From a virus: a DNA stretch of 64,000 nucleotides. Each line of letters opens with the position of its first letter. Within the stretch, counting starts at the first letter, position 1. The DNA is taken from positions 6,807 to 70,806 of the IMG/VR virus record IMGVR_UViG_3300010354_000070. One strand, given 5' to 3'. Below the pieces are notes generated by a model. The model worked only from the letters and a program-made list of their open reading frames with translations, ran no database searches and had not been told where the DNA came from. Below are positions 6,401 to 63,999 of this stretch, in pieces. A program made the position numbers and the translations under genes.

Positions 6401-8575
6401 TTAGGCAACAAGTTCAATAAACTCTCCCAAGATTTTCTTATTCATTTTTTTAGAACTCAAACTCCTCGCAAAAGCAGATTTAATCTGAGTTTTGGATGCG
6501 TCTTCGGCAACAGAAAATACTGTGCTTGCGTTAAGAGCATTAGAAGAAAGACCAAAGTAACTATGATAACCAGAGGTTTTGATTGAAAAACTCTTTTGTT
6601 TTTTCCAAGTTTCCATAATCTTCCTGTGCTCCTCTGCATTACTAACCTGAGAGCGAAGAAAATTACTCACATCTCCTGACTTAAGAATACGCATACCAAT
6701 AAAATTTACATCTGAGAAATTATCACGAAGATTGCGAATAAGAAGATTAGTAAAATCACAGTATTCGTAATCTTGTAGCCTATAAACATTTCCAGTTTTT
6801 CTATCCCTCAAAAATGTATTGCTTGGATTGACAGTATTCAGACCAGTATAAGGTTTATCTGGATTACGATAAGGTTTAATCAAAACGTGTCTTTTTAGTG
6901 GTGCTGCTTCACCATCTGTCAGAATTACACACTGAACTTTTTGTAATTTATTTTCGCTTTTGAATTGTGGAATAATTTGATGAAGAGTTACCAAAGTTTC
7001 ATTCAGTGGAGTTCCAGAAAGTGTCATCTTACGAGGAACATAATATTCTGTTCCATAAGAATTTCGGTGTGTTTTAGCAATCCTATAAATGTTAATCATT
7101 TGCTTCTCAAGTTCTTTTGAACTTACTTTACTCGTGAAAATATTCATCAAAGAAAAAGTACAATCAACCTCAAGAAGACCCTCTTTTGCTTCATAATATG
7201 AAATTGGAGTAAAAGTTCCTGGCAGATACTGACAACCCCAATCATTAGTAAAAGCATAAACTTCAAATGGAATTGAAACTTTCTTACAGAACCAAATCAG
7301 ATTATAAAGTTGCTTGATAGTATCAAGAAAAACTTCACCCATTGAACCAGACCAATCAAGAATAAAAATTAGTCCGTGATTTTTTCCATCCGCAAGAGTG
7401 GTTACTTTCTTAAAGATATCATCATTATACTTATAAGTATGAAGAATAGACGTATTTAAAATTCCTGTTTTTGAAATTGATGCCCGAGCATAACTGTCTG
7501 CTGCTTTGCGGCATTCAAATTCTTTTACAAGATAATTGACTTCTTTTTGAGAAGAACGCTTGAACTTTTGATAATCTTTATCTACTTCATCAAATAATTC
7601 TGGATATTGACGATACTCAATTTGGTCCTGCCAACTCTGATTACAGTGGTCGTGAATTTCTTTATTTGATACGATTACCTTTTCCAAATCAACTTTAGGA
7701 AGTTCAACATAAGTATTCTCAACTCCAGATGAATTCTTAGCCAAATCACGAATAGAGTTTTCTAAACTCTCCATAGTTTTGGCAATTGGTTCTCCACCTT
7801 TTGTTCCCGCATTTGAAGTGTCGGCATCATTGATTTGATTATTTTCACTTTCAGAAGGACTTTGTTTCAGTGAAGGTTTGCTATTACCTTCAGTCTCACT
7901 GGTCTCACTGTCTTCATTTACATCATTATCACCTTCTTCCGATGATGTGTCGGAATCAGAATCATCAGATGAACCACCACCATTTTCCTCATGAGAATTA
8001 ATGGAAGAAATCTTGGTTTGTTCGTCCTGTTTTTGCTTACAATACTTATAAAGTTCTTCTGCGGCAACTAAAACATCATCAAACGTTTCGGTTTCGGCAA
8101 TCATATCAACAATATGCTGCTCTTCAGCATTAAAATTCAATCTCAGAAAATTACCAATCTTGAAAAAAAGATTTACCCTATCAGCAAGATTATAAGTATC
8201 AAGATTGTCATCTTTAATAGAAAAGAAATCCTGGTCGTTGAGTTCTTTATATCCATTATAAAAAGTTTTTGCGAGACCAGCATACCGACGCTTCATTAGT
8301 TTTTCTACACGAGCATCTTCACAGATATTTACAAAACTCGGTGGAATGTTGTAGTCTTTGGACCAGTCAATATTGGGCGTTTCACGAGAATGTCCCACTT
8401 CATGTGCTACAAGAAGTGAATAGATATTATCACTTGCTTTTTCCCAAAGTGGCAGCGTCAGACAGCGGGTATGAACGTTGAAGCAGGCGGTTTCGACTTT
8501 ACGATGTTCCACAATAATGTCTTCTGTTGCCAAAAGACGGGCAAGCATACCCTTAATTTCAAGATTGACGGTCAT
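6401..8575 (-). CDS. CobT-like VWA-domain protein with N-terminal HExxH domain (partner of the CobS/MoxR ATPase)
   Basis: AHEVGH, NICEDARVE, acidic linker, MIDAS motif LDWSGSM...GTPL...LTDGE. Confidence 0.85.
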   Translation of the reverse strand: MTVNLEIKGMLARLLATEDIIVEHRKVETACFNVHTRCLTLPLWEKASDNIYSLLVAHEVGHSRETPNIDWSKDYNIPPSFVNICEDARVEKLMKRRYAGLAKTFYNGYKELNDQDFFSIKDDNLDTYNLADRVNLFFKIGNFLRLNFNAEEQHIVDMIAETETFDDVLVAAEELYKYCKQKQDEQTKISSINSHEENGGGSSDDSDSDTSSEEGDNDVNEDSETSETEGNSKPSLKQSPSESENNQINDADTSNAGTKGGEPIAKTMESLENSIRDLAKNSSGVENTYVELPKVDLEKVIVSNKEIHDHCNQSWQDQIEYRQYPELFDEVDKDYQKFKRSSQKEVNYLVKEFECRKAADSYARASISKTGILNTSILHTYKYNDDIFKKVTTLADGKNHGLIFILDWSGSMGEVFLDTIKQLYNLIWFCKKVSIPFEVYAFTNDWGCQYLPGTFTPISYYEAKEGLLEVDCTFSLMNIFTSKVSSKELEKQMINIYRIAKTHRNSYGTEYYVPRKMTLSGTPLNETLVTLHQIIPQFKSENKLQKVQCVILTDGEAAPLKRHVLIKPYRNPDKPYTGLNTVNPSNTFLRDRKTGNVYRLQDYEYCDFTNLLIRNLRDNFSDVNFIGMRILKSGDVSNFLRSQVSNAEEHRKIMETWKKQKSFSIKTSGYHSYFGLSSNALNASTVFSVAEDASKTQIKSAFARSLSSKKMNKKILGEFIELVA

Positions 8576-46063: not shown

Positions 46064-49000
46064 TCATAAAATTTGATTTATTCTTAAATTTAAAGCTCCA
46101 ATATTTCTTAAACCATATCCTCTTCTTTGAATTATTGGATAAGTTGATAATCCAGAATTATAAGAAAAAGTTGTGATACCAATACTAGATGTGTACCCAC
46201 TAACTCCTATAGATATAGGAGAAGGTGAGCGACTAAACCCAGAAAGTTTTCCCCAAGAAAGTTTTCCTACTGGATAATTTATTATTCCTGTAGTAGCAAT
46301 TCCTATAGTAGAAGTAGTAGATAATATATTACATGTTAATATTCCAAGAGATGGAGTATATGCATTTACATGATAAATATTATTTAAAAATGAAGTACTA
46401 ATAGAAACTATATCATTATCTCCAGTATTTATTGAAGTAACACCATTACCAACATTTGTATTTAAAACATAAATTGGATATCCAACTAACAATGATGCCG
46501 GAGAAGGTGAAATAGTAAATTTAATTGCTAAAGGAACTCCTATTCCTACAGTTGTAGCAATTCCAACAATAGAAGATTCAAATCCCTGTATCGTTGTTAT
46601 ATTTTTTATAATTTCATATTTAGTATTATTTGTAGATACCAATACTTGAGGAGGAGATGAATTTGTGTATCCAAATCCAGGATTTGTAATAATTATTGGA
46701 GAAGTTACTGTTCCTGAAGTAGACACTGTTGCATATGCAGATGCTCTCTCTGAAATATTTTCTCCATTTTGATTTTTTATTAATCTTGGTGAAGAAATTA
46801 TTAAGGGAATAGTAGAACCAGTATATCCACTACCACCATCAATTATTTCCAATGAACTTATAGTTCCTGACAAAGATACAACTGCATTTACTTTTGCTGA
46901 AATTGGGTCTGCAATCTGATTTGCAATAAATGCGTCGAATTTAATTGGATTTTGATTTTCATAATTAAATAACTCGATACTATCTACAAAAATTTCGGGA
47001 GAAGAAGAGTTGAAGTCTTTTATAATGTTTGCTGTTGGGTAAATTTGTGGTTCTATGGAATTTCTAGATTTCGATACAAATTGCTCTTTTATTATTAAAT
47101 CGGACTTTTGTTTTGTCCAATAAACTGGTTTTTCAATATTTGTATCAATTCCTTGATCTATATATAGATTTGTTTCTATACGATCAGATCCTACAATTTC
47201 ATATACAATTCTAGAATTTTGAGTAATAGTATTCTCAATAAAATTATTATTACTAAAAACTTGTAAATCATCACCAATTTTTATAGTTTCATCTGTTTCT
47301 ATTAATTGACTATCTTCATCTCTTGTTCCTCGATAGAAAAATATATCAACTTTGTCATTTGGTTTTGGTGGAACTGAAAAAGTAAAACTAGTTCCACCAG
47401 TAAATTGATATGCATCTCCAGATTTTTGAAGAACACCATTTATAAAAATTATAAGTAGTGAAGAAAAATTAATTAATTGAGAATCAGCATCACTTTGATC
47501 TAATTCAAAACTTAATAATTCATTGTTATAATAAAGTGGAAATCTAGTTCTAACTCCATCTTGATATAATTTAATTGAATCAATATAATCTATTTCACCA
47601 AACTGCCAAGCACAAAAAGAATCATTAAAAGTTTCTAATACTGTAAGTCTAAATTGTTCTGGTGGGGAAGAAAATCCTCTAGCAGTTACTAATCCTACTG
47701 GAGTAAATACATCTCCTATTTGAAATCCATATCCGGGTCTAGTAATTTTAAAAGATGTAACTTGAAACAAGGTAGACCCAATACCTACTGACGTTGAACT
47801 GGCTCCAACTTCAACATTTAGTAATAAACCTTGTCCGGTATCAGTTGTTGTACCGATACCGAGTCTAGATACACCAATAACAGGTAAATTTTCATAACTA
47901 GGTGGAGATACATTAATTGTTGGATTTATATAACCAGTCCCACCTCCTATTATTGTAAAAGATAAAGTTCCTCCAGCTCCGACAATTGCTTTAACAGTAG
48001 CTGCCATTCCGACATGATTACTTTCAGTAACAGCAACAGAAACAGGATCTCTATAACCAGATCCAAATGAACCAGAAGTTGTTCCTATTCCAATTGATAC
48101 TATAGATCCACCAACACCAATAACTGCAGTTACAGATGCCCCAACTAATGGTGCGTATCCTAATCCAGATGAAGAACCTAAAGATACAATTATTCCACCT
48201 CTAGGTAATTGATTTTGATTGACATCAAAGGGTGATGTATAAACACTACCATCACTACTAGTAATACCAGTAAAAGTAATACTTGTAAGACCAACTGGTT
48301 CTGTTATAAAATAATTATTAGAAGAATTGTTCAATGTCGTTGGAGTTTGGAAAATATTGTTAATAAAAACAATACCATTTCCCCCACTAGTTCCTATACC
48401 AGTAGTGTTTATTCCGCGAGTTGTAAGAGTAAATGTTTGTTTTTTCCCAGTAAATTCTGTAGAAATATCATCATATAATCTATTAGTTTCATAATTTTTT
48501 CTTAAAAATACTCTTCCATTAAAACTAGATCTAATTCTGGGTAAATTACTTGGTTCTGGTTCAATAAAGTCTAATGAATTTCCTCTAGGTGCCTCGGTAA
48601 AGAAAATTTCATTTCCCACTATATTATATGACCCACGATATATTCTTACCAAAGATGTATCAGTGTGAATACCAGAAATTGATCCCAAAAATCCTCTTTT
48701 AACTTTTACTAATGGAATATCCCCAATAAACGAAATGGGACCAACATTTGTAGTTCCAACACCCACATTTTCCACTTTCATATACTCATTATCAATTTCT
48801 AATATATCATTAAGAGAAATAGAACTAATTCCACTTAATGCAAAAATAGTTTTATCTTCATTAATTTGACCTCCATTTTGAGATAAAGTATGTTTTATTG
48901 AAGTATATGTTATTGGATATTGAGCTATATTATCTATAGTAATTAAAGTCTTTTCATTTTTTTTATACATTTCTATTTCGTGAGCATTTCCAACCCCAAC

Positions 49001-52000
49001 TGATGTAAAAGTAACTCCTATCCCCTGGAAAGCATATTCGGGTTTAGTTGATAATCTAAAAACATCATTGCTATCCTTTATAGCCCATAATTTATTAGGC
49101 AAAATGTCAGTTACAATTCCAAGATAATTCGAAGTCTCACCGATTCCCATTGGAGAAGATCCAATGCCCGTAAAAGTTGATTTTGGTGTGTAAATTAATT
49201 CTTCTCCTGTACTAAAAAAGTGATTTGGTATTGTAAATTTGCCAGTAGATAGATCAAGAATAGATGCATCAGAAGGATTAAAAGTTTTTGAAAAAATAGA
49301 AACATTATTATAATTCAATTGAAAATCTAATTTTTCATTAAATATGCTATTTAATCCATAAAAATATGAATTTTTAAGAGAATCGACAACTGTTCCGTAA
49401 CTCAAAGATGGTGGTTCGTTAATTAAATCTTGTTCTCTATAAAAACTTTCATTAAATGAAGAAATTTCTAACTTTTCACTAACATATTGATTTGGATAAA
49501 ATTTGAGTATAAATTTTTCGCCTGAAATTTCAGATCCAAAAGTACCTATACCGTTAGTACTTCCTATAGATAAAAATGGATACTGCAAGGAATATGTATC
49601 AATTTTATCGTAAACTGTCATTACTTGATGTATTGCACTTGTATTTCCTGTAGAAATTCTAACAAGTGATTTTACCGATGAAAATGTATTTTTATCTAAA
49701 GAAATAACTGAAGTTGAACCAGATCCAATAAAATTAGTATAATTGGATGTATAAATCGCTGTTTTTTCATTTCCTGCAATTTGTCCGGAAATAATAAATC
49801 TATGAATGCCTTCACCCAAAGAAGTTGACCCAAAACCAACAGTTTTAGATCTAATTTTTATGTTTTGTATTGAAGTATTGGTATAATTTAAAGATAAAAT
49901 TCCATTTGGTGAAATAGATGCTCCAAATGATCCAATAAATCCAAAACTAGATTCATTAATACCACCATCAAAATAATTTTCGGCAATATAAGTATTTGAT
50001 CCATCATGAGATACATATATTTCAACATAATTCATATCAGAATTATCTGAAGTAGCAATATGAATATTCGAATATAGAGATGAATATTGTAATGAATTTA
50101 CACTAACTATTGTGGTTGTTATTCCACTTGCAACAATTTTATTGTCATTTATTAGATCAATAAATCCAATTTTTTTAACTGTGGATATTCCTACATTAAA
50201 GTTGTTAAAAGTACTTTGTAATATTTTAATATCATAATTAGAATTTAAAGCATCGTAAGGATCAAAACTCAAATAAAAATTTAAATCTTCATTTACATAA
50301 CCTTCTATTTCAGCCAGTGAAGATTTTTTATTATCAAAGGAAAAATAATCAGTTTTTGCTGTTGAAACTCTTCCTTTTTTTAAGGTATAAATGTCATTAT
50401 CATTGTTCATTATAACAATTTCATCAAATTGAATTTGATCTGTAACAATATCCCTTGTTTGTATTAAAAATCTATTATATCCATTAACAGTATTTAAATT
50501 TAAAATATTTGATGTGGAACTTCTTTCATCTTCAATACTAGAAAATGATGAGCTAATATCATCAATTTCTAAAACTCTATTGGTTTTGCAAAGAATATAA
50601 TCAGTTAGTTTTACGTTTTTAAACTTAAGAAATTTTGATTTATCTGCAAAAGTATCAATATCTAAAACTAAATCAAAATTATTAATTGAATCTACTCTAT
50701 TTTCGCTAATATAATCATTAATAAGAGAAATGCTTGAACTTCCAGTTTCTATTCCAGATAGAAATGAATTTTCTATTTGAGAATCCGAAAAATTTTTCAA
50801 TCCGCTTGGATGAAGTATATTGTTTACTGGAGTTACGATTTCATCCCATGTTTTAGTACTTTTTATACTATAAGAAAGATTTTGATAATAATCATTATTT
50901 GGGATTACTTGAAAATCATCGTTTAATTTTCCAAAATTATTTTTCCACCCTATATTTTGTATATTAGAATAACTTATATTATATCTACCTTTCGTTGATT
51001 GTTGATCGTTAATTGTTGCTTCTACTAAAGATTGAACTCCTCTAATTTTTTCATTTTCTGACAAATTATAAGAACCAACAACCCTAACAAAATTAGTATT
51101 AGAATCGGTAACTGTTAAATCTCTCAAAATAAATCCATTCCCATTATTTGATAATAATTTTTCACCTATAAAAAATGGAGAAAATATTTGTTTTACTTCA
51201 AATTGTGGATAGTTATTGAATTTAATTATATTTGCATATGATTCCTGTAATGTTTTTGCAATTCCTGGATTTTTGGTATATTTGGATATATCATACTCTA
51301 AAATTGCAGGATTTAAGTTAAAGTAATTTTTTACTGTAAAAAATTGATATCCATGATCTGAAGAATTAAATCCTTCACCGTTATTATCATTTTTTTGAAT
51401 TCCCTCAACAAATATTTTTTCTCCAACAAAAAATGGAGAAGTTGTGAATCCAAGTATAGGGGTAGTAAGAATACAAGTTACAATTCCCAAAGAAGAATAT
51501 TCAACTTTATTAATAGAAATCCCGTTAGAATTATTAATTGCTCTGATGGTAACTGGTTTTGTTGGCAATCCTTTCGGTGGTGTCTCAATAGTTACTGATT
51601 GTATAGATGAACCAACTAATTTTGGTTTGATAAATCCAGAATCTATAACATTTCCGGTATCGCTATCTATACAAATTAAATCTGGAGGAGATGTATAATC
51701 TTTTCCACCACCAACTACTAAAATACTCTCTATAGAATTTGCTGAAAAAATTGATATTGATTTTGGAATAGATGCGGATGGTCTTAAAGTTTTGTCAACT
51801 AAGTATTCAAATCCCTCATTTATAATTCTTTCTTTTTTTATTTTACCTATTGTTTTTGATATTGGAATAGCGAATAATCCCAACCCAGTTGTTGATCCTG
51901 TTCCAATAAATATTGGAAGTTTTTTATATCCACTTCCACCGGAAGAAAGTTTTAATTTAGCAACTCCCCCAAATTCTGTATTTGATTTAGTTGTGTATTC

Positions 52001-55000
52001 TAAATTATCACACTCACTTTGTGTATATGAAAATTTTTCAGGTATAGATTTTAAAGAAACTGTAAAATTTGTGGATCCAATTCCATTTACAAAATAAGTA
52101 CCATTATAATTACTATTAAATGAAATTATTTCGGAATTATTGATAACCTCAGTATCAGAAGTGCATATAAATCCAGATTTTTCTATATTATAATAAAGTT
52201 TTTCTGGCGTTTTTTCTGAAAAATTTAATGTTAATGATGCTTCTGAAGTAACTCCTACTGTACCAAACCCAATAATAGAAAAATTATTTTCAAATCCATC
52301 GGATATAAATTCTTTTGTAAAATTTTTATCATAATAAATTTTAAATTTGTATCCTGTTAAAGATGGATCAGATAAATTAAATACTAAATTATTATTTTTA
52401 ATTATTGGAATTTGTGGATTTATTAAACTTAAAGTTTGTGTTGAAGATCCTGTTCCCCGAATATCAACAACAGTTGGTGGATCTTCAAAACAATCAGAAT
52501 AAGTTTCGCAAAGACTTATTTTATTTTTGTCTATTTTATAAACAAAATAAAATCCAGTATTTAATCCAACTGCAATAGAACCATATGATTGATATAATAC
52601 TTTATCTCCGGTTTTAAAATTATGTGATAATATTGAAATAGAATTTAGAGAAGTATTTATTCCGGAGGGTGAAATAGATATTGGATCTATTAACAAACTT
52701 TGAGTATCAGGATCAAACTTTACAAAAATTGAAGTTGACGTTCCTATACCAACAGATATATTTGGATTTAAACTTATAGAAACTAAATCTCCATTTCTTA
52801 AATTGTGAGAAGTTGAAACAGATACTAAAGCATTAACTCTTGTGCTATCTGCATAAATTTGTTTGTAGTTTGTTTCTATGGAATAAAAATAATTATTTGG
52901 ACCAGAAAAAGGAAAAAATAAACCACTCGACACTGTTGTAAGACCAACATTTGTAACTATACCAATAAAATCTTTTGATTTTTTTATTACATATACTTTT
53001 TCTGTATTTTCATTTAAAATAGTAAAGTTTGAATTTGTATATTCATCATATACCGTTATCCCAACTCCAGATATTTTTTTCAAAATCGCTTCTTCACCAT
53101 TAATAAATGAATGATTCGGAAGAAAAATACTTTGAGACGGAATAAAAATTTTATAAGTAGTTATTCCAATGCTGTAATTTTCGTATGAACCAAGTCCTGC
53201 TGTAGTTCCTATTCCTATTGATTGCGATGGATTAAAATAAATTTTATTATTTTTTTTGGATTCAAAATAGTTTGTTTTTTTATTGACTGTAAAATAATCT
53301 GGCAAATAATAAACAGGTGATGATTGGGAATGAGAAGTGCCATTAGGTGATCTAGATACTCTCACAACTCCATAATTTGGATATAAATTTAATATTGAAA
53401 ATATTTCATCATTTATTTTAATACTACTTCCAATAGAAATATTTTGAGGAATTGTAGTCAAATACATATCAAATACACTTCCAGTAACAGAATAACTTGG
53501 AATAGTATTGGCAACCCCTGCAATATGTGAATCAACTTCAATTTGATATGTTCCATTTAGATCAGTAGACTCTGTTGTTAAACCAGATATTATTACATTA
53601 TCTTTATTTAAAAATTCATGATAAGGGGATACATATATCTTTATTTTTTCTCCATTTTCCCAAATAATTAAAGAATTTGAATATGCATTTAACGATGATT
53701 TTATGTCAACTATATTTTTACCTTTCAATTCAGATACACTTGCAGAAATTCCCCCTCCACCGGTTTCACTATCATCAAATATTAAATTATCTCCTATTGA
53801 ATAATCATTACCAAAATTAATAATTTTAATATCATCGACATAACCAGAAGTTACGGATTCAATAATCGTTTTTTGATCTATTATTTCGTTAGACTCAACC
53901 AAGAAATCATAGTCCGAAAATAAATCATCAACTTTATATGGAAGAGTATTTCTAATCAATGAAGAATTATTAAAATCAAAATTTTGATTTAATAATAAAT
54001 TTTCATCTAATATAGATGACCTATACTTATTTCCAATAAAATATGGAAATTTGCCAATTATACTTCCGGATGCGTTAGTATCGACTGTTGCAAAATATGC
54101 ATAAACTCCATTTGGAAACTCTGGTGTTTTAGTAAATCTCCCATTGAATTCGTCCAAATCACCACTCTCAGAATATTCGTAATCTTCTATAAAAGAACCA
54201 TATGGGAATAAGCTAACATCAGGTCTATTTGTAATGTTTTTTTGTGTATAACTTGAATTTATTTTTTTAATTGGAGAATTATTATTGTTTGGATCGGAAT
54301 ATCCATAAGGTCCGTAAATTGGATTGCCATCATATGACCACCCAATAATTGGTGAGTGTTTAGAATTTATAACAACTTCATTATCATCTAATTGTATAAA
54401 TCCATCATCTCCAATATTATTTTTTATGTTTTCCGAATAACCAGCAATAAAATATCCTAAATTATTATTTGTTTCTACAAGAATCTCACTTGCCGGATCT
54501 CTATAAAATGGTCCTTGCGTTCCATATTTGTATGAAATATTGAGATTAAGAGATCTAACATTAGACTGAAATACTGCATTTTTTCCTGAATTTTCTACTA
54601 TAATTGATGTACCATTTTCCGAATACCCCGATCCGGAATTTATTATTATAACACTAACAATTTTATTGTCATTTAAAACAGGTCTCAATAAAGCACCAGA
54701 TCCATTTCCTTTTACAATTAAATCTGGAGTAGAAAAGTAATTTTCTCCACCATATTGAATTTTTACATTTATAATTTTTCCGTTAGATATTATTGGAAAA
54801 AGTTGAGCATTAGTCCCATTTTTAACTAAAATCGATGGTCTTTGATGAACGTTTATTATATTTGATCCATAATTATTTCCATTTTCATAAACATATACTT
54901 GGGATATTTTTCCTCTAATAATTGGAATTGCTGAAATATTGTTACTTATTCCTGTACTTCCAACTCCAACTAAACTGTATTTTACGTCCAAAGTAATTTT

Positions 55001-58000
55001 AGGATAACTAAAAACTTGATATCCAGATCCAGATCCTTTTGTTCCAAATTTTACATAATTTTTTCTTTCATAATTTGATCTATTAGTCCCACCAATACCA
55101 GCATCGCAAAGCCTAAACGAATTTGAATCAACTTTTAAAACATAATATTGATTTGATCTACTTAAATTAGAAATTACTGATTCTGGTTCGTATTCTAGAG
55201 TCCAAGCAATTCCTGCAGGATTACCATTCCAATCTATTTCACTATTAGGAGTATTATAAACAACACCAGATATTTGATGATAACCTTTATTTAAGGTTAC
55301 AATTACGTTCGTTTCTCCACCGGGAGCATAGTTAGAAGAACTTGCCACTTGAATTCCATCAATAAACAATGTTGATGAATTATCTGCCTGAAGTTTAAGA
55401 GTATAATTACCTTCATTTACAACTTCAATATCCCAATAAACTGTATGATTTACACCTGATAATGGCAAAGTATCACTAGGATAAATTGCATATTCGTTCA
55501 TTAAATCACTCCAAGTTACCCAATTAACAGCAACCCAACCACTAGGAATTGGATTTCTTGAAGAGAAAAAGTTATCAGGAGAATACACTATCAATTCCCC
55601 ATCATTAAATCCATGATTATTAAAACTAATTGTATGATTATAAGTAGAAATTCCCGAAGATTTTACTCTTAGTAATCTATTTGCATAACCATTACCACCA
55701 TTAATTACCTCAATACCGGTTAATGTATTTTTTATTTCAGTTGCAAATTTTTGTATTCCGGAATTTCCAAAGGTTGTAAATCCAACTGTATTAATTCCGG
55801 ATGAATAATCGGATAAAGTTGGGTATAACTGTATTGTCTTATTATTAATTGTTTTGATGTAATAAGACGCTCCATTTTTTAATGTTTTTGATTGATTTTC
55901 ATTTGATTGTTTGAATGTTCCTATTCCAATTTCTGGAAAATTATTACTATCATATTGTATTTTTTGTCCGTCTATCAAATTATGTGCAGTAAAAAAAGTT
56001 ATGGTTTCGTCGGTATAATCCAATCCACCACCATTCGTTAAAGATCTTGCATCAAATTCTATTTCTCTTTTATTTTTTTGAATTATTGGTAAAAATTTAG
56101 CTCCCTGACCATTTCCACCAGTCAAGTTAATAGAAATAATTTTATCCAAGTCAAAATCTTGTGGATCAACATAAACTTTTTCAACAGATCCAACAACAAC
56201 TGGTTGAAGTAATGCATTTCCGAAACTTGGTTCCAAAAGAGGGGGACTTATAACATCATAATTAGATCCACCATTTAATACCAATACACTTTCTAACGGA
56301 CCATAATATACTTTATCTGTGGTCTTATAATTATAAATTTCAACACCATTTTTTAAAATTCCTACAGGACCAGGAACTGTATGATTACTATTACTATCTC
56401 CAATATTTGGATATATTTTAATTTTTTTTAGAATATTCTGAGGGGATATTTTATTATTTTTTTGTGAATATAAAGTTATAGTATGTGTACCAAGAGGAAT
56501 TGTTTCAGAAAATTTACCAAAGGATGTAAAAGAATTTGTTCCAATAGATGATGAAGATGAGTATAGTTTAATTTTTTTATTACCACTTAAAACTTCCACA
56601 AAGTAAGGACCTCTTTCCAATCCAACTATCGGTAAATTCGAAAAATCATAATAAACTTTATCACCAGTTATAAAAGAAACCTCGGAAGAAAATTCTAAAA
56701 TAGAATAATTTTCAGTTTCTTGTTGATAACTATCCAGATCTATTTTAAATACATTATACTTAAATATGTTAGAATTTATAGTATATGACGGAAAAGAATT
56801 TGATGCAATGTATAAATATTCAGAATTTTCATCATAAACGTTTAATACATCTGAAATAACTGAATTATTTCCAAATTCAATTGGAACAATTGAACTATTT
56901 GCTTTTTTTATTTTTCTTCTAATATCATAGTTATTTGACGAAAAAGATAATTGAACGTCTGTTTGTAATATTCTATTTCTTAATGATTCATTAATGTCTT
57001 GATTATTAACTGATAAAACTGACACATTTTCATATCCAACTAAAGGTTGATCAGTGCCTCTAATTAAAATCTCAATACTATCTCCGACTTTTATATTAGA
57101 TTTATCAATTGAACTTTTGAGAATTAATTCATTTCCAGAAAAAGACTCAATTTGATGCCTAGTGCTAGTATTATAGATCCAAGAATTTGCAAAAATTTCT
57201 TTTTTTGATTTATTAGTTTCTGGATTTAATATTTTTTCACCTAAGTTTAATGGATATATTTCATCATTTTCCACGAAATTAAAATCTTTATCATCAATAC
57301 TTAAATTCGATATAACTCCTGTAATTCTAAATTCAACTTTTTTTGATAGATCTCCATTTTCATAACCATAATAAACTTCATCAGATCTTATTGTAGAACG
57401 TATAGGGATTTCATTCTTAACGCCACTGCAACCAAAAAATTGATTTACACTTTTATTAGTATATAAAATTTCATTATTTTTTGAATAAATTTTTCCTGAA
57501 TTTGGGAACCCGATAGTTGAATCTACACTAATAACTGAACTTCCAACAGATATTTTATCTAAATTTTTAGTGCTTGGAGTGATATTAAATGTCCCAGTAA
57601 TTGTTGGATAAGTATCGTCATATCCTAGAAATAAAAATAATTTATGGTATGTCTTTCCCGAACGAGTTATTGTTTCGACTTCCGATACAGAAGCACTTGT
57701 AGAAATTTCATTATACTTAAATATCGATTGTCCAGAAAGCAAAGTGGGATTTCCCGAGATTGTCTCTACTACTATTATTTCTCTACGAGAATATTCCGAA
57801 CTTGAAGGTTTAATTAAAAATTTTTCTAAATCTATTACTGATGGAGTTTCTCCAAACAAAATATTAAACAAAATACGAAAAGACTCACCTGTTCCTTTCG
57901 ATTCATATAAACTTCTTGCTTCTTTTATAAAATTTCCAACATTTAAATCACCAATAAAATCTAAATTTTCTAGTCCCGGAGTTAAAAAATATTTTAATTT

Positions 58001-58507
58001 TTTATAGAATTCCTGCAAAAATAATGAACTTAAATTTTTAACTGTAGAACCAGAACTATGGGAAGATGCAGATGACTGCGAAAAAACCAATTCTTCTGAA
58101 TTTAAACTATCATGATAATCAGTTATACCACTAAATCCACGAATACAACCAGTAAAAGAATTTGTTGTTATACCAGTATAGGTAATAATCTCATCATCGA
58201 TTTTCAATAATCCATATTTTGGAGGAAATCCTTTTGTTGATGTAACAGTAACAATCCCCGAAGAAGAAGAAATATTAGTAGACAATCCAATAGATCCGAC
58301 TATTACCTCTGATGTAAGATTATTTAATTTCAAATATTGATCTAAATTTTCTGCAATATCTACAGCACCACCTTGAAATTCTTGTGAAATATAATATTGC
58401 TTTAAAAAATCTTCTAATTTTGGGCTTTCATCTAAAATAAACTCTGGAAGTTGATTTCTAATAACTTCTTGAATTTTTACCCTTGAATTTAATCCTGTTT
58501 GTATCAT
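46064..58507 (-). CDS. gp7: Giant baseplate wedge initiator-like protein (4147 aa)
   Basis: Lies between gp6 and gp8; N-terminal QLPEFI...FLKQYY, LYESKGT..S.RILF, HSPIIGWSYDGNPIYGPYGY, DYYQNLSY..K, LHPSG; many GxGY repeats. Confidence 0.8.
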   Translation of the reverse strand: MIQTGLNSRVKIQEVIRNQLPEFILDESPKLEDFLKQYYISQEFQGGAVDIAENLDQYLKLNNLTSEVIVGSIGLSTNISSSSGIVTVTSTKGFPPKYGLLKIDDEIITYTGITTNSFTGCIRGFSGITDYHDSLNSEELVFSQSSASSHSSGSTVKNLSSLFLQEFYKKLKYFLTPGLENLDFIGDLNVGNFIKEARSLYESKGTGESFRILFNILFGETPSVIDLEKFLIKPSSSEYSRREIIVVETISGNPTLLSGQSIFKYNEISTSASVSEVETITRSGKTYHKLFLFLGYDDTYPTITGTFNITPSTKNLDKISVGSSVISVDSTIGFPNSGKIYSKNNEILYTNKSVNQFFGCSGVKNEIPIRSTIRSDEVYYGYENGDLSKKVEFRITGVISNLSIDDKDFNFVENDEIYPLNLGEKILNPETNKSKKEIFANSWIYNTSTRHQIESFSGNELILKSSIDKSNIKVGDSIEILIRGTDQPLVGYENVSVLSVNNQDINESLRNRILQTDVQLSFSSNNYDIRRKIKKANSSIVPIEFGNNSVISDVLNVYDENSEYLYIASNSFPSYTINSNIFKYNVFKIDLDSYQQETENYSILEFSSEVSFITGDKVYYDFSNLPIVGLERGPYFVEVLSGNKKIKLYSSSSSIGTNSFTSFGKFSETIPLGTHTITLYSQKNNKISPQNILKKIKIYPNIGDSNSNHTVPGPVGILKNGVEIYNYKTTDKVYYGPLESVLVLNGGSNYDVISPPLLEPSFGNALLQPVVVGSVEKVYVDPQDFDLDKIISINLTGGNGQGAKFLPIIQKNKREIEFDARSLTNGGGLDYTDETITFFTAHNLIDGQKIQYDSNNFPEIGIGTFKQSNENQSKTLKNGASYYIKTINNKTIQLYPTLSDYSSGINTVGFTTFGNSGIQKFATEIKNTLTGIEVINGGNGYANRLLRVKSSGISTYNHTISFNNHGFNDGELIVYSPDNFFSSRNPIPSGWVAVNWVTWSDLMNEYAIYPSDTLPLSGVNHTVYWDIEVVNEGNYTLKLQADNSSTLFIDGIQVASSSNYAPGGETNVIVTLNKGYHQISGVVYNTPNSEIDWNGNPAGIAWTLEYEPESVISNLSRSNQYYVLKVDSNSFRLCDAGIGGTNRSNYERKNYVKFGTKGSGSGYQVFSYPKITLDVKYSLVGVGSTGISNNISAIPIIRGKISQVYVYENGNNYGSNIINVHQRPSILVKNGTNAQLFPIISNGKIINVKIQYGGENYFSTPDLIVKGNGSGALLRPVLNDNKIVSVIIINSGSGYSENGTSIIVENSGKNAVFQSNVRSLNLNISYKYGTQGPFYRDPASEILVETNNNLGYFIAGYSENIKNNIGDDGFIQLDDNEVVINSKHSPIIGWSYDGNPIYGPYGYSDPNNNNSPIKKINSSYTQKNITNRPDVSLFPYGSFIEDYEYSESGDLDEFNGRFTKTPEFPNGVYAYFATVDTNASGSIIGKFPYFIGNKYRSSILDENLLLNQNFDFNNSSLIRNTLPYKVDDLFSDYDFLVESNEIIDQKTIIESVTSGYVDDIKIINFGNDYSIGDNLIFDDSETGGGGISASVSELKGKNIVDIKSSLNAYSNSLIIWENGEKIKIYVSPYHEFLNKDNVIISGLTTESTDLNGTYQIEVDSHIAGVANTIPSYSVTGSVFDMYLTTIPQNISIGSSIKINDEIFSILNLYPNYGVVRVSRSPNGTSHSQSSPVYYLPDYFTVNKKTNYFESKKNNKIYFNPSQSIGIGTTAGLGSYENYSIGITTYKIFIPSQSIFLPNHSFINGEEAILKKISGVGITVYDEYTNSNFTILNENTEKVYVIKKSKDFIGIVTNVGLTTVSSGLFFPFSGPNNYFYSIETNYKQIYADSTRVNALVSVSTSHNLRNGDLVSISLNPNISVGIGTSTSIFVKFDPDTQSLLIDPISISPSGINTSLNSISILSHNFKTGDKVLYQSYGSIAVGLNTGFYFVYKIDKNKISLCETYSDCFEDPPTVVDIRGTGSSTQTLSLINPQIPIIKNNNLVFNLSDPSLTGYKFKIYYDKNFTKEFISDGFENNFSIIGFGTVGVTSEASLTLNFSEKTPEKLYYNIEKSGFICTSDTEVINNSEIISFNSNYNGTYFVNGIGSTNFTVSLKSIPEKFSYTQSECDNLEYTTKSNTEFGGVAKLKLSSGGSGYKKLPIFIGTGSTTGLGLFAIPISKTIGKIKKERIINEGFEYLVDKTLRPSASIPKSISIFSANSIESILVVGGGKDYTSPPDLICIDSDTGNVIDSGFIKPKLVGSSIQSVTIETPPKGLPTKPVTIRAINNSNGISINKVEYSSLGIVTCILTTPILGFTTSPFFVGEKIFVEGIQKNDNNGEGFNSSDHGYQFFTVKNYFNLNPAILEYDISKYTKNPGIAKTLQESYANIIKFNNYPQFEVKQIFSPFFIGEKLLSNNGNGFILRDLTVTDSNTNFVRVVGSYNLSENEKIRGVQSLVEATINDQQSTKGRYNISYSNIQNIGWKNNFGKLNDDFQVIPNNDYYQNLSYSIKSTKTWDEIVTPVNNILHPSGLKNFSDSQIENSFLSGIETGSSSISLINDYISENRVDSINNFDLVLDIDTFADKSKFLKFKNVKLTDYILCKTNRVLEIDDISSSFSSIEDERSSTSNILNLNTVNGYNRFLIQTRDIVTDQIQFDEIVIMNNDNDIYTLKKGRVSTAKTDYFSFDNKKSSLAEIEGYVNEDLNFYLSFDPYDALNSNYDIKILQSTFNNFNVGISTVKKIGFIDLINDNKIVASGITTTIVSVNSLQYSSLYSNIHIATSDNSDMNYVEIYVSHDGSNTYIAENYFDGGINESSFGFIGSFGASISPNGILSLNYTNTSIQNIKIRSKTVGFGSTSLGEGIHRFIISGQIAGNEKTAIYTSNYTNFIGSGSTSVISLDKNTFSSVKSLVRISTGNTSAIHQVMTVYDKIDTYSLQYPFLSIGSTNGIGTFGSEISGEKFILKFYPNQYVSEKLEISSFNESFYREQDLINEPPSLSYGTVVDSLKNSYFYGLNSIFNEKLDFQLNYNNVSIFSKTFNPSDASILDLSTGKFTIPNHFFSTGEELIYTPKSTFTGIGSSPMGIGETSNYLGIVTDILPNKLWAIKDSNDVFRLSTKPEYAFQGIGVTFTSVGVGNAHEIEMYKKNEKTLITIDNIAQYPITYTSIKHTLSQNGGQINEDKTIFALSGISSISLNDILEIDNEYMKVENVGVGTTNVGPISFIGDIPLVKVKRGFLGSISGIHTDTSLVRIYRGSYNIVGNEIFFTEAPRGNSLDFIEPEPSNLPRIRSSFNGRVFLRKNYETNRLYDDISTEFTGKKQTFTLTTRGINTTGIGTSGGNGIVFINNIFQTPTTLNNSSNNYFITEPVGLTSITFTGITSSDGSVYTSPFDVNQNQLPRGGIIVSLGSSSGLGYAPLVGASVTAVIGVGGSIVSIGIGTTSGSFGSGYRDPVSVAVTESNHVGMAATVKAIVGAGGTLSFTIIGGGTGYINPTINVSPPSYENLPVIGVSRLGIGTTTDTGQGLLLNVEVGASSTSVGIGSTLFQVTSFKITRPGYGFQIGDVFTPVGLVTARGFSSPPEQFRLTVLETFNDSFCAWQFGEIDYIDSIKLYQDGVRTRFPLYYNNELLSFELDQSDADSQLINFSSLLIIFINGVLQKSGDAYQFTGGTSFTFSVPPKPNDKVDIFFYRGTRDEDSQLIETDETIKIGDDLQVFSNNNFIENTITQNSRIVYEIVGSDRIETNLYIDQGIDTNIEKPVYWTKQKSDLIIKEQFVSKSRNSIEPQIYPTANIIKDFNSSSPEIFVDSIELFNYENQNPIKFDAFIANQIADPISAKVNAVVSLSGTISSLEIIDGGSGYTGSTIPLIISSPRLIKNQNGENISERASAYATVSTSGTVTSPIIITNPGFGYTNSSPPQVLVSTNNTKYEIIKNITTIQGFESSIVGIATTVGIGVPLAIKFTISPSPASLLVGYPIYVLNTNVGNGVTSINTGDNDIVSISTSFLNNIYHVNAYTPSLGILTCNILSTTSTIGIATTGIINYPVGKLSWGKLSGFSRSPSPISIGVSGYTSSIGITTFSYNSGLSTYPIIQRRGYGLRNIGALNLRINQIL

Positions 58508-60430: not shown

Positions 60431-60832
60431 TTATCTTGTTGCCTCTACAATAAAAGTGAACTGTTGTGTAGGAAATTCTTGTCCAATTATATCAAAGTTA
60501 ACAGTTACTTCAAATTCATTTCTGTCTGGTTTTGGATCTACTTCTACTTTTAAGTTTGATACTCTGGGTTCATAATTCAAAATTGTAATTTTGATTTGAT
60601 CTTCTATGACAGATGCTGTTGCAAAATCAACAAAATCAAATAAAGAAGAACGAACATCTGATCCCAAATTGAGATTAAAAAATCTTTCTTTTGGTATTGT
60701 TTCTACTAAATTGCGAATTGAGCGAGTAATTGCTCTTTCATTTATGAGTATTGGTAGATCCTTTGTCACAGGATGAGGTTCAAAGGATAGGCTAATATCT
60801 TTAAAAGATCTAGATATCCTTATATTTGTCAT
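60431..60832 (-). CDS. gp25: Baseplate wedge subunit
   Basis: FKDISLSF..HPVTKD, ERFFN..LGS, YEPRV; TATAAATA at 60861-60868. Confidence 0.95.
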   Translation of the reverse strand: MTNIRISRSFKDISLSFEPHPVTKDLPILINERAITRSIRNLVETIPKERFFNLNLGSDVRSSLFDFVDFATASVIEDQIKITILNYEPRVSNLKVEVDPKPDRNEFEVTVNFDIIGQEFPTQQFTFIVEATR

Positions 60833-60870
60833 TGAAAAAAATGGAAAAAATTTCTTAAGTTATTTATACC

Positions 60871-61113
60871 TTATTTCCAAAAGTTTCCATATGACGGTTC
60901 AGTTCCATATTCCCAATCATCATAATCATCATCATTTCTAATTTTTTCATGTAATTCAGTTTGTTTATTGAAATTATGTTTTGGGGCAGAATCATGCATA
61001 ATTTCTTGAATTATTCTTTTTTGTGGTAATGAATTATAGTCTGTGATTAATTCCTTAGTACCCCACATTTGATACATATAATTTTTATCACGATCTACGG
61101 GTAGGTTTGACAT
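60871..61113 (-). CDS. Hypothetical protein
   Basis: 80 aa with AGGAG RBS; preceded by a structured leader. Confidence 0.7.
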   Translation of the reverse strand: MSNLPVDRDKNYMYQMWGTKELITDYNSLPQKRIIQEIMHDSAPKHNFNKQTELHEKIRNDDDYDDWEYGTEPSYGNFWK

Positions 61114-61119
61114 TTTTTC

Positions 61120-61175
61120 TCCTGTTTTAATGAATAAAACAGAACTTTTATTATTGTGCGGTTCTATCGCACAAT
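61120..61175 (-). promoter_or_regulatory. Candidate cis-regulatory RNA (H-type pseudoknot versus RBS-sequestering hairpin)
   Basis: ATTGTGCG/CGCACAAT stem; loop ATAGAAC complementary to downstream GTTCTGT; competing stem TTCTGTTTTA/TAAAACAGGA. Confidence 0.55.
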
Positions 61176-61180
61176 TCTAT

Positions 61181-61507
61181 TTAACGTTCTATCTCTCTTA
61201 TTTGATAATTGTAAGAATTTAAGTATTTTAGTAATTGAATGGCAATTAATTTAGGATTTCCTTCTCCACAAGTATAAACATCAACTGCTAAACAACCATT
61301 TTCAGGCCATGTATGACAAGAAACATGACTTTCCGCAAGAGAAATTACAATTGTGCATCCCTGAGGAGTAAAACAATGGGAAAAAATATTTAAAATAGTC
61401 ATCTTTGCCCTTTCAATTCCCTTTTCCATTACTTCTTGAAGGGATATGGCGTCATTTAAAAGATTATAATCTACATTATACACCTCTAAAAGTAGGTGTT
61501 TTCCCAT
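61181..61507 (-). CDS. speD: S-adenosylmethionine decarboxylase family (pyruvoyl-dependent) proenzyme
   Basis: MGKHLLLE...F.PQG.T...LAESHVSCHTWPE...DVYTCG, with the E-S autocleavage site. Confidence 0.92.
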   Translation of the reverse strand: MGKHLLLEVYNVDYNLLNDAISLQEVMEKGIERAKMTILNIFSHCFTPQGCTIVISLAESHVSCHTWPENGCLAVDVYTCGEGNPKLIAIQLLKYLNSYNYQIREIER

Positions 61508-61542
61508 TGAAAAACGTTCCAATTCAGTTTTTTCCAAAAAAA

Positions 61543-62001
61543 TTATTTATTTCTGATTTTTTGGACCATTTCATAATCATTTTCAAGTATTTTTTTTAAA
61601 AAATTATCATCCCATAGGTCATAATAATTTGTTTTAGCTAAAATACGTCTCATTTTAGTTAAAAAATCGGCATTTTGATATAAAACTAAATTATAAAGTC
61701 CATTATTGGTTTGCTGTTTACCGATGAAACTTGATTCATCCTTAAAATCATCAAAAAATTTATATTTTGGATATAATTCATTTAATTTATCAATTTTTTT
61801 TAATGCATCTTTTAGATTTAAGTCATCTTCAACAATAAAAATAACGACACCAAACTCTTCTTCAAGAGGTTTAATGTCGTCAATGGAACATTTTATAATT
61901 TTATAAGTGCTTGTTTGTGCAAATGGGCAAATAGGATGTCCTTTTAGATCTGGATTACGTTGTTTAACTTTATTAATCCATTCTTCAAGGTCTTCTATCA
62001 T
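61543..62001 (-). CDS. Hypothetical protein (CPFA motif, DUF1415-like)
   Basis: WINKV...GHPICPFA...NLVLYQ...R..LAKTNYY..W. Confidence 0.65.
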   Translation of the reverse strand: MIEDLEEWINKVKQRNPDLKGHPICPFAQTSTYKIIKCSIDDIKPLEEEFGVVIFIVEDDLNLKDALKKIDKLNELYPKYKFFDDFKDESSFIGKQQTNNGLYNLVLYQNADFLTKMRRILAKTNYYDLWDDNFLKKILENDYEMVQKIRNK

Positions 62002-63301: not shown

Positions 63302-63588
63302 GTAACGGATTTTACTTTTTGAAAATATTTTTTATATATAAAAATTTTTTTTATTAAAAGGTATTATGATGTTTTTACTCAGAAAAATTTTTTATTTTTG
63401 AAATAAAACACAGTCTATATTTACTTTTATAGATTACGGGGTCCCATCGTTTTTATATAACCCCCCCCCTTATAACCATTATAACCCCCTAACGACGGCG
63501 GCGCCGATATAAGAAACCCGCCAGGATTTAACTGCCAAACACGAACGAATGACTGCCCCCCACGAATAACGCAGGGGGCACATGTTCG

Positions 63589-63786
63589 TCACCCTTGCTG
63601 ACTGCGCCACCCGCTAATCGGGCAACGGGTAACATCGGCGGCATGAACTTCAGCGAACTGTGCTGCCCACACTGTAGCGGGGATGCCCACGGGGTCGCTG
63701 ATCTTCTCAAACTTGCTACCATCATTGCGGTAGCTGACCCACACGGTCTTGCGGTCAGCGAGGCGGGTAGCAGGGGAAAGACGCAT
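63589..63786 (-). CDS. Small hypothetical early protein (65 aa)
   Basis: MRLSPATRLADRKTVWV...; has its own promoter; GC-richer codons. Confidence 0.55.
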   Translation of the reverse strand: MRLSPATRLADRKTVWVSYRNDGSKFEKISDPVGIPATVWAAQFAEVHAADVTRCPISGWRSQQG

Positions 63787-63813
63787 TGGGTTGATTGCTT
63801 GTGAACTGAAAGA

Positions 63814-63869
63814 ATTATAGGGCATCCAGGGGGTCCTGTGAACCCCCTGGTTCATAAGTGTTGCTTATG
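63814..63869 (-). promoter_or_regulatory. Early-type promoter: palindrome, hairpin-embedded -35, and TATAAT
   Basis: CATAAG-N5-CTTATG; hairpin CCAGGGGGT/ACCCCCTGG; TTCACA-N17-TATAAT. Confidence 0.7.
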
Positions 63870-63999
63870 CGACCTGAAACCTCCCGAAGTTAAAGTTTGC
63901 ATAGCTGAAGGATTCACGATTGACCAGTTTGAACATGCCAAACTCATTGGACATCACATAACCTTCAGCATCAATCCTATCGGTGCCAATGTAAGCGGC
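63865..63999 (-). CDS. C-terminal end of a conserved phage protein (DUF6267-like), partial
   Basis: ...AEGYVMSNEFGMFKLVNRESFSYANFNFGRFQVA*. Confidence 0.65.
   Translation of the reverse strand, partial: AAYIGTDRIDAEGYVMSNEFGMFKLVNRESFSYANFNFGRFQVA

Follow-up and report, generated by a model that had tools for sequence, protein, structure and literature searches.

The question raised by this locus is what the 67-nucleotide (nt) spacer between speD, the gene for S-adenosylmethionine (SAM) decarboxylase, and an open reading frame (ORF) of 80 amino acids (aa) does on the minus strand of a contig from a freshwater T4-like cyanophage (IMG/VR record IMGVR_UViG_3300010354_000070, positions 6,807 to 70,806; this whole stretch of 64,000 nt is referred to below as the window). 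The original prediction had read the spacer as a riboswitch-like leader, in which a small pseudoknot and a hairpin burying the Shine-Dalgarno (SD) sequence exclude one another, and had proposed a ligand- or protein-controlled translational ON switch for the 80-aa gene. Comparison with related loci indicates that the leader is very probably a functional structured RNA, and that it is a member of a widespread, apparently undescribed family of cis-regulatory RNAs of T4-like cyanophages. For its mode of action we favour, with a probability of about 0.5, a translational switch that is OFF by default and is turned ON by an effector-stabilised pseudoknot domain. The leader is composed of the following features:

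61153..61175, minus strand: P1 hairpin, an 8-bp stem with a 7-nt loop (sequence, RNAfold and covariance-model match)
61175-61168, minus strand: 5' arm of P1, ATTGTGCG (sequence)
61167-61161, minus strand: loop of P1, ATAGAAC (sequence)
61160-61153, minus strand: 3' arm of P1, CGCACAAT (sequence)
61161..61165, minus strand: AGAAC in the P1 loop, the proposed 5' strand of the pseudoknot; exact complement of 61141-61145 and near-invariant as AG-N-AAC in homologues
61146..61152, minus strand: A-rich linker AAUAAAA, which would be loop 3 in the pseudoknot; its last four A, adjoining GUUCU, do not vary (alignment columns A29-A32)
61141..61145, minus strand: GUUCU, proposed to enter the pseudoknot as its 3' strand; it also contributes to the anti-SD arm (sequence and homologue comparison)
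61120..61144, minus strand: hairpin 2, a type A platform of 10 bp, in which UUCUGUUUUA (61144-61135) pairs with UAAAACAGGA (61129-61120) around the loop UUCAU
The same hairpin 2 as DNA, minus strand: 5' arm TTCTGTTTTA (61144-61135), loop TTCAT (61134-61130) and 3' arm TAAAACAGGA (61129-61120) (sequence)
61119..61123, minus strand: Shine-Dalgarno sequence AGGAG, four of its five bases lying within hairpin 2
61113-61111, minus strand: ATG of the 80-aa ORF (sequence)

The region 61105-61195 (minus strand) is folded by RNAfold into exactly P1 and hairpin 2, with an energy of -19.2 kcal/mol versus a mean of -8.6 kcal/mol (standard deviation 2.27) for shuffled leaders (z = -4.67; 0 of 200 shuffles as stable); taken alone, P1 contributes -9.2 kcal/mol and hairpin 2 contributes -8.2 kcal/mol. 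P1, its loop, the linker and the hairpin burying the ribosome-binding site had been predicted with exact letters, and both hairpins are recovered by the folding program. The loop sequence AGAAC is the exact complement of GUUCU and, because UUCU is common to GUUCU and the anti-SD arm, the loop/tail pairing and hairpin 2 are mutually exclusive, which bears out the two alternative folds of the original prediction. The longer pairing that had been drawn there, of all seven bases of ATAGAAC with GTTCTGT, is sterically unlikely, and 5-6 bp are realistic.

The same arrangement is found in hundreds of contigs of T4-like cyanophages. The 80-aa gene, earlier proposed from the sequence as a target of the switch, is a real ORF with homologues in 958 protein clusters, all of them annotated as 'hypothetical'. 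Their leaders share a core of approximately 30 nt, in which P1, with AUAG-N-AAC as its loop, is joined to GUUCU(G) by an A-rich linker whose last bases are AAAA. A DNA pattern describing this core was found in at least 120 viral stretches; among the matches listed, 116 of 120 possess a P1 of at least 4 bp, and in almost all of the 117 unique leaders the start codon of the same modular small-ORF family is located 25-35 nt downstream. A relative of the small ORF is encoded in 597 of 600 pattern-matched IMG/VR stretches, again among the matches listed. The element is present in S-SRM01, S-SKS1, DSL-LC02 and B3/B23, and so spans habitats from that of the freshwater phage S-SRM01 to that of the marine phage S-SKS1. 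Covariance model R1 matches the window at 61140-61177 on the minus strand (33.4 bits, E-value (E) 2.7e-7), the next best hit scoring 12.7 bits; complete genomes contain one match each (42.9-48.7 bits; 18.8 bits in B23), with next best scores of at most 15.7 bits. PeSL-like elements are multicopy cassettes, and the single copy per genome rules out an affiliation with them. The element was not found in P-SSM2, S-T4 and S-WAM1: in the first two no small ORF is annotated directly before gp25, and S-WAM1 possesses only a C-terminal homologue in another context. When the core pattern was compared with 185,579 species genomes, 3 of the 120 listed matches had a stem of at least 4 bp, approximately the random expectation, and none of these three was followed by an SD platform; there is no sign of cellular copies among them.

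Both hairpins covary. In an alignment of 96 unique cores (A1), four inner pairs of P1 were examined: pairs 12-21 and 10-23 are G-C in 94 of 96 cores each, while pair 11-22 is occupied by GC (49), AU (39), CG (5) and UA (1), and pair 9-24 by GC (37), AU (32), CG (19) and UA (3). The covariation score of P1 is 0.202 versus 0.072 in shuffled alignments, of which 0 in 500 reach it, and slid controls score 0.077 or less. For hairpin 2 the first variable pair among 76 unique type A platforms is U-A in 42, A-U in 33 and unpaired in one. As both stems covary, both are real RNA structures, and the comparison of homologous leaders originally suggested has a positive outcome for P1 and hairpin 2. A structured domain with stem covariation, as generally expected of riboswitches, is present.

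Downstream of the core the leaders differ widely, and yet they converge on the same strand. The 177 unique leaders for which platforms were classified comprise 128 of type A, including the window, in which UUCUG and 2-8 further bases pair with their complement plus CAGGA and the SD is contained in the 3' arm. In type B (24 leaders) UCUGUUU pairs with AAACAGA abutting the AUG, and the SD is located in the loop. In type C (8 leaders) a GAAA-type loop caps a single long hairpin that brings the SD together with the linker and the P1 3' arm, and GUUCUG is paired with a complementary segment of its own. In type D (3 leaders, in which UUCUCC pairs directly with GGAGAA, plus the B23-like ones) the SD is paired directly by UUCUCC, UUCUAA or UCUUCU; the remaining 14 leaders have other platforms. 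In the minimum free energy folds at least 3 nt of GUUCU are paired downstream in all 177 leaders, and GUUCU is paired within -14 to +3 of the start codon in 168 of 177 leaders versus 705 of 1770 shuffled platforms. A conserved sensor-like domain sharing a strand with variable platforms, the second generic trait of riboswitches, is therefore observed, and by analogy the combination of an invariant 5' domain with differing helices that appear to bury the SD or AUG is an organisation of the riboswitch type.

What the invariant 5' domain would form is best explained by an H-type pseudoknot. The proposed geometry has a loop 1 of 2 nt (AU), a stem 2 of 5-6 bp stacked on P1, and a loop 3 of at least 6 nt ending in the four invariant A. 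The loop and GUUCU are near-invariant, the five putative pseudoknot pairs being invariant in the canonical family, and the only free position in the loop is the bulge N, which is C, A, G, U or absent (absent in the window). To avoid the bias of a pattern search, 224 loci were picked by their protein, blind to the RNA. The element was not detected in 21 of them, a few of which are cut contigs or have a 3-bp P1 under the threshold; the others represent 119 unique leaders with 17 loop/tail combinations, all of which keep at least four of the pseudoknot pairs, while 117 keep at least five. The tail variant GUUUCU occurs in seven leaders with four loop types, all with a purine at N, versus approximately 13% purine at N in canonical leaders. 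In B23 and two further loci (L521, L522) AGAAAC faces GUUUCU in six Watson-Crick pairs, with the inserted U pairing N. Other combinations are GGAAC with GUUUC(U) (L087, L540) or with GUUCU (L362), GG-A-AAC with GUUCU (L584), and AG-C-AAC with GUUCC (L539), which leaves one terminal mismatch; the A-to-G changes in the loop yield G.U pairs. As to the AGAAC/GTTCT pairing, whose conservation and covariation had been set as a test, complementarity is kept in 119 of 119 unique protein-anchored leaders, and double substitutions were not found. Judged on sequence comparison, the pseudoknot is probable, being well supported by invariance, geometry and compatible variation, although short of proof.

The energetic balance between the two folds appears to lie on the side of the buried SD. 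Across leaders, an average of 6.3 kcal/mol is lost when GUUCU and the loop are kept out of ordinary pairing (for the window, -19.2 kcal/mol becomes -13.4 kcal/mol), and the bare stem 2 duplex, in a bimolecular estimate, yields only -3.0 kcal/mol for AGAAC:GUUCU and -0.3 kcal/mol for the common AGCAAC form with its C bulge. Because stem 2 is weak and blocking GUUCU is costly, the SD-buried fold should win unless the pseudoknot is helped. We propose that the conserved 5' domain can fold as a compact H-type pseudoknot, in which the loop AG(N)AAC would pair with GUUCU and the A-run would lie along P1. In the alternative fold the SD or AUG region would be paired by GUUCU or, in certain lineages, by the linker and the P1 3' arm; this fold, favoured by nearest-neighbour energies, would represent the default OFF state. 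A trans-acting effector that stabilises the pseudoknot domain would then turn translation of the small ORF ON, and stabilisation could be provided by tertiary A-minor contacts, Mg2+, a ligand or a protein. Since the element is single-copy, has been seen only in phage sequence and controls a non-metabolic gene, we regard a factor specific to the phage or to the infection, be it a protein or a small molecule, as a better candidate than a common metabolite.

How the leader is transcribed bears on several of the other possible explanations. The genes and signals surrounding it are the following:

61181..61537, minus strand: speD, S-adenosylmethionine decarboxylase, the upstream neighbour outside the element (Pfam AdoMet_dc PF02675, E 8.5e-31)
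61183-61181, minus strand: stop codon UAA of speD (sequence)
61178..61185, minus strand: late-promoter-like box GTTAAATA, one base from the cyanophage consensus, overlapping the speD stop and 2 nt 5' of P1
60871..61113, minus strand: putatively regulated gene, an 80-aa acidic protein of phrog_1414 (function unknown) with N, M and C modules
60861..60868, minus strand: perfect T4-type late promoter box TATAAATA, between the small ORF and gp25
60431..60832, minus strand: gp25 baseplate wedge gene, the downstream neighbour (Pfam PF04965, E 1e-13; phrog_261, E 7.3e-51)

Among 180 unique leaders, 101 have a TAAATA box that ends 4-7 nt 5' of P1 and 105 have one within 40 nt, versus a background of 2.1% of 40-nt windows; GTTAAATA, which overlaps the speD stop, accounts for 63 of these 105 boxes and AATAAATA for 25. 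A terminator is located ahead of the late box in several metagenome loci. Judging from its position, the box upstream of P1 presumably acts as a promoter and, given the spacing rule for late transcription starts in T4, its proximity makes P1 probably the very 5' end of the late transcript in many lineages. The late promoter consensus described for cyanophages is NATAAATA (PMC2984593). The other 75 of the 180 leaders have no promoter box, and coding sequence reaches the element. The upstream ORF, analysed in 177 leaders, stops at most 12 nt before P1 in 94, at a UAG in the loop in 17 and at a UAA in the linker in 4, runs through the core in 33, and is absent as a long ORF in 24; these positions may leave room for an effect of upstream ribosomes. 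In a group of loci from some lineages (L089-L109, L215 and similar) the upstream ORF lacks its own stop and its frame stays open across the element (..RDSNPVKSS..); in the other two frames the element supplies a stop, UAG from the loop or UAA from the linker. A coding function of the element was rejected: all frames are closed in the window and in speD contexts, and the changes in P1 are compensatory at the RNA level.

The proximity to speD, which the original prediction had offered as suggestive, proved to be a feature of the minority. A speD-type stop context is found in 63 of the 180 unique leaders, and the rest follow other genes or a terminator with a late promoter; the occurrence of the element behind many other genes rules out a link with speD or polyamines, and on this distribution speD is a neighbour by accident. 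A stimulator of stop-codon readthrough or frameshifting for speD was likewise discarded, as in the window another in-frame stop is reached 9 codons further on, and there are copies of the element that have no speD. On the downstream side, TATAAATA is likewise found between the small ORF and gp25 in S-SRM01, S-SKS1, B23 and DSL-LC02, so that gp25 is probably transcribed from a promoter of its own, with the small ORF as the main target of the leader. An internal late promoter, TATAAAAG, was considered and dismissed, the commonest linker GUAAAAAG being without it. The coding strand of the leader carries no intrinsic terminator, P1 being followed by AAUAAAAG with no U-run, and the only terminator-like call lies on the opposite strand. 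The window as a whole contains 28 copies of ATAAATA, 23 of them on the minus (gene) strand, versus a mean of 50.5 in shuffled sequences, an avoidance and strand bias that fits a use as late promoter core; one copy is located at 61544-61550, just upstream of speD.

The product of the small ORF belongs to a family of acidic proteins of 45-100 aa with a modular structure: an N module (PVDRDxNYMxxMWGTxxLITDY), a middle module, and a C module (HEKIRNDEDYDDWEYGTEP) or an alternative C module. AlphaFold2 predicts three short helices with low confidence (predicted local distance difference test score 69.5; predicted template modelling score 0.25). With no module common to all members, autogenous regulation through a single conserved domain is not favoured. 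In the marine phage S-SKS1 (L082, NC_020851.1) the small ORF and its leader lie at 1146-1345, in an unannotated gap between a ferredoxin gene and gp25. This ORF is only 48 aa long and, after an A-run, the continuation typical of the family (..EEKVLQEIMHDD..) is found in another frame, which suggests a frameshift, be it a sequencing error, a pseudogene or a programmed shift.

Several observations speak against the proposed switch and are to be set against the evidence above. At the pseudoknot helix no true double (compensatory) substitution was found at any pair, and its invariant columns in the canonical family give no covariation; the compatible loop/tail variants come from one protein clade and maybe represent 1-3 independent events, loop G-to-A variants had a P1 in 0 of 115 listed matches of a scan dominated by noise, and the invariance could equally reflect two separate contact sites for a protein or the ribosome. 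The default-OFF state depends on nearest-neighbour estimates in which the energy of the pseudoknot is not included. The element is dispensable, as 11 of 71 unique protein-anchored metagenome leaders consist of a late promoter and SD only, and a further homologue (L028) also does without it. N-only and C-only forms of the protein occur, so that no module is universal, and neither Pfam, the PHROG functional annotation nor the Atlas gave a lead to the function of the 80-aa protein. Two RNA-type sequencing runs yielded contigs over parts of gp25 and speD only, none of them over the leader. Finally, while the ON switch originally proposed gained from the conserved core and from at least four platform designs that compete with the 5' domain, its ligand or protein did not materialise: no effector was identified, and the gene context was uninformative in this respect. 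The two hairpins with their conservation and covariation, the invariance and complementarity of loop and tail, and the mutually exclusive design across different platforms are observed directly; that the pseudoknot forms, which way the switch turns and that an effector exists are what we infer.

The same facts can be arranged in other ways. The leader might work without any effector, P1 being a stabilising hairpin at the 5' terminus of the message and hairpin 2 a fixed attenuator that keeps the small protein scarce, while the pseudoknot would open a transient co-transcriptional window for translation or sense temperature or Mg2+, with no specific ligand or protein. The late box 4-7 nt before P1 in 101 of 180 leaders, in several cases after a terminator, would make P1 the 5' end of the mRNA, as this explanation expects; GUUCU is transcribed some 20 nt before the competitor arm, the OFF fold is the thermodynamic minimum, and the element is single-copy and seen in phages only. 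It does not explain, however, why eight loop bases, four A and GUUCU are near-invariant while the P1 pairs vary, nor why four platform designs are aimed at the same strand, and 75 of 180 leaders have coding sequence up to the element and no promoter box; we regard it as possible but somewhat unlikely. Transcript context could be decisive instead, in a variant of the temporal control of the T4 genes e, soc, 49 and I-TevI: ribosomes ending on the upstream ORF, shortly ahead of P1 or within it, would melt the 5' domain, leaving read-through transcripts (early or polycistronic) with a buried SD, and transcripts from the late box would keep the pseudoknot and be translated. Stops at most 12 nt before P1 (94 of 177 leaders), in the loop (UAG, 17) or in the linker (UAA, 4) and ORFs running through the core (33) agree with such a gate, as does the T4 precedent of SD-sequestering structures that are active only in long early transcripts (PMC3014915). 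Yet, unlike in T4 gene e, all of the inhibitory structure follows the late box and would be retained in late transcripts, 24 of 177 leaders are without a long upstream ORF, the gate requires an intrinsically stable pseudoknot that the energies disfavour, and in the window speD itself is preceded by ATAAATA at 61544-61550, which blurs the distinction between early and late; this scenario is distinctly unlikely.

An unlikely candidate as well is a simple protein operator without a pseudoknot: P1 with its 8-nt loop and/or the AAAAGUUCUG tract would serve as the binding site of a phage protein that represses or activates translation, such as an autogenous regulator or a factor resembling gp43, gp32 or RegA. 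The loop UAAC of T4 gene 43, the gp32 pseudoknot with its A/U tract and the RegA sites provide precedents (PMC3014915), the element is single-copy and gene-specific like T4 operators, and the loop of S-SKS1 reads AUAGUAAC. Against it, N is usually C, so that UAAC is not conserved, the lack of a universal module (N-only, C-only and other ORFs) argues against autogenous control, and variable anti-SD platforms imply a rearrangement of the RNA and not plain occlusion. That the structure arose by chance, or that the leader acts at the level of DNA as a promoter, terminator or recombination site, can hardly be true: TATAAAAG in the GGAG-type linker does resemble a late or -10 box, and on the opposite strand the complement of P1 followed by T-rich sequence scores as terminator-like, but the commonest linker GUAAAAAG is not promoter-like, no U-run follows P1 on the coding strand, the plus strand has no genes here, 0 of 200 shuffles are as stable, and the compensatory changes in P1 and hairpin 2 are signatures at the RNA level. 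Within the preferred reading of an effector-dependent ON switch, a rather speculative and doubtful version is an orphan riboswitch confined to phages, whose pseudoknot aptamer of some 30 nt would sense a small molecule reporting the state of the infected cyanobacterium, such as a nucleotide-derived or phage-made metabolite, and switch on a small late protein whose gene lies beside the baseplate genes; if true, this would be the first riboswitch class without cellular members.

The source contig of the window (70.8 kb, with an estimated completeness of 33%) has Synechococcus phage S-SRM01 (Kyanoviridae) as its nearest named relative. Its genes around the leader are ordered, on the minus strand, as a 152-aa ORF, speD, the 80-aa ORF, gp25, gp6 and a 4147-aa structural protein, and the ORF list contains no genes on the plus strand around the leader. 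The 4147-aa protein is encoded by a single ORF at 46064-58507 (minus strand) directly after gp6, its counterpart in S-SRM01 being annotated as virion structural protein. The region 63450-63900 of the window shows only a 65-nt match to a hypothetical gene of S-SRM01, with no Rfam family or tRNA. The stretch is present in DNA metagenomes from freshwater, rivers, reservoirs and similar sources; in the metagenome contigs covering 61114-61151 the depth peaks at the conserved leader, and the loose ends past 61151 carry a P1 of the GGAG/CUCC type. As these loose ends carry the P1 of relatives, several related phages bearing the element coexist in the same freshwater samples. One homologue (L384:60-158) has a different leader, where a 6-bp hairpin has the loop CUUUAG, complementary to a CUAAAG that overlaps the SD. 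Either coincidence or a pseudoknot of unrelated design could account for it.

To our knowledge, post-transcriptional control in cyanophages is almost unexplored, worked examples being available only from T4 (gp32, gp43, RegA and the gene e hairpin). The element, abundant among T4-like cyanophages of freshwater and of the sea, has a size suited to direct biophysics (a core of approximately 35 nt, or approximately 65 nt with the platform), and cultured systems are available with S-SRM01 on Synechococcus KCZYC6 and S-SKS1 on WH7803. It flags a family of small proteins (958 clusters) as specially regulated, and it shows that a small ORF is missing from the annotation of S-SKS1. If an effector exists, the element would provide a handle on the timing and dosing of a late protein, and a compact ON switch for cyanobacterial synthetic biology.

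The element was compared with known RNA families using Rfam 15, which gave no family at its gathering score anywhere in the window. Scans at E <= 10, covering 2.5 kb, three narrow leaders (81-101 nt) and 13 related loci, gave only noise below threshold (freshwater-2, preQ1-II, GP20-b, and BMV3_UPD-PK1 on the wrong strand); the Rfam scan suggested originally thus lends no support to membership in preQ1-I, preQ1-II or SAM-II, nothing coming near the gathering scores. Freshwater-2 (RF02980) scores 16.6 bits at the leader versus a gathering score of 49.9, with equal or better scores at unrelated sites and in control genomes. GP20-b (RF03003), a candidate cis-regulatory motif of phages, shows a partial likeness, since its second hairpin and tail (GGuG-AagGCaAC-CaCC-UAAAAAAG) resemble P1, the loop and the linker, and both occur in leaders of phage structural genes (PMC10690425). 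The match is restricted, however, to model positions 19-58 (14.4 bits versus a gathering score of 36.2), and the element scores 10.3-13 bits in four relatives; the first hairpin is missing here, the 3' end of GP20-b reads GCgUA versus GUUCU, and a gene other than GP20 lies downstream. Neither RF03003 nor RF02980 exceeded the cut-off in five related genomes or in the record of the window. The glutamine-II/Downstream-peptide motif is a structured leader that is also borne by cyanophages. Further structured leaders, described in T4-like cyanophages, are manA, wcaG and PhotoRC-II (PMC2864571). None of these motifs was found at gathering score in the window or at the leader at E <= 10. The catalogue of 2023 with more than 8,000 candidate viral RNAs (PMC10690425) mentions neither a baseplate nor this motif in its main text, and its supplements may list it; the main text of PMC5737381 mentions neither 'freshwater' nor cyanophage motifs. 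Literature searches on cyanophage riboswitches or pseudoknots, and on late promoters, baseplate genes and secondary structure, returned no description of the element.

Closer functional parallels are provided by T4. Its operators, a hairpin at gene 43 (with a selected loop containing UAAC), a 5' pseudoknot with an A/U-rich tract for gp32, and initiation regions for RegA (PMC3014915), resemble the present element in being single-copy leader structures that govern translation initiation of one gene. They repress through occlusion by a protein and stand before the regulator's own gene, whereas here an alternative anti-SD fold is found and no protein module is universal. With the T4 genes e, soc, 49 and I-TevI, whose SD-sequestering structures act only in long early transcripts (PMC3014915), the element shares a late gene whose SD or AUG is buried in a helix with late boxes close by. 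In the gene e type, however, the late promoter lies inside the inhibitory 5' arm and late transcripts are thus free of the inhibitor. In the present leaders the box precedes the complete element, a second, conserved domain contends for the inhibitor strand, and the commonest linker GUAAAAAG is not a late box.

In architecture the nearest likeness is to the small pseudoknot riboswitches. Small H-type pseudoknots with A-rich loops underlie preQ1-I and SAM-II. Like preQ1-I, SAM-II and preQ1-II, the element would consist of a domain of approximately 30 nt with a short P1, the 3' part of whose loop pairs with a tail behind an A-rich tract, and as in these riboswitches the tail overlaps or competes with the SD and a conserved core is combined with variable platforms. 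By model and gene context it stands apart from each of them. For preQ1-I (RF00522) there is no match at E <= 10 in the 2.5 kb, the three leaders and the 13 loci; preQ1-II (RF01054) reaches 16.6 bits (E 1.2 in the 101-nt search) versus a gathering score of 47, with an alignment driven by AAAGGAGAAAAUAUG, the SD region; and an association with queuosine or preQ1 genes was not found, the downstream genes being a small hypothetical protein and then gp25. SAM-II and SAM-V do not match at E <= 10 at the leader, and their gene context is not present either, since speD lies upstream and not downstream, and in 63 of 180 unique leaders only. Unlike preQ1-I, the C closing the loop would pair in cis with a G of the tail, the listed matches include no cellular copies, and the gene is unrelated to queuosine or SAM. 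In most examples of preQ1-I and SAM-II the pseudoknot hides the SD; the pseudoknot proposed here would act in the opposite direction, freeing the SD and turning the small gene ON.

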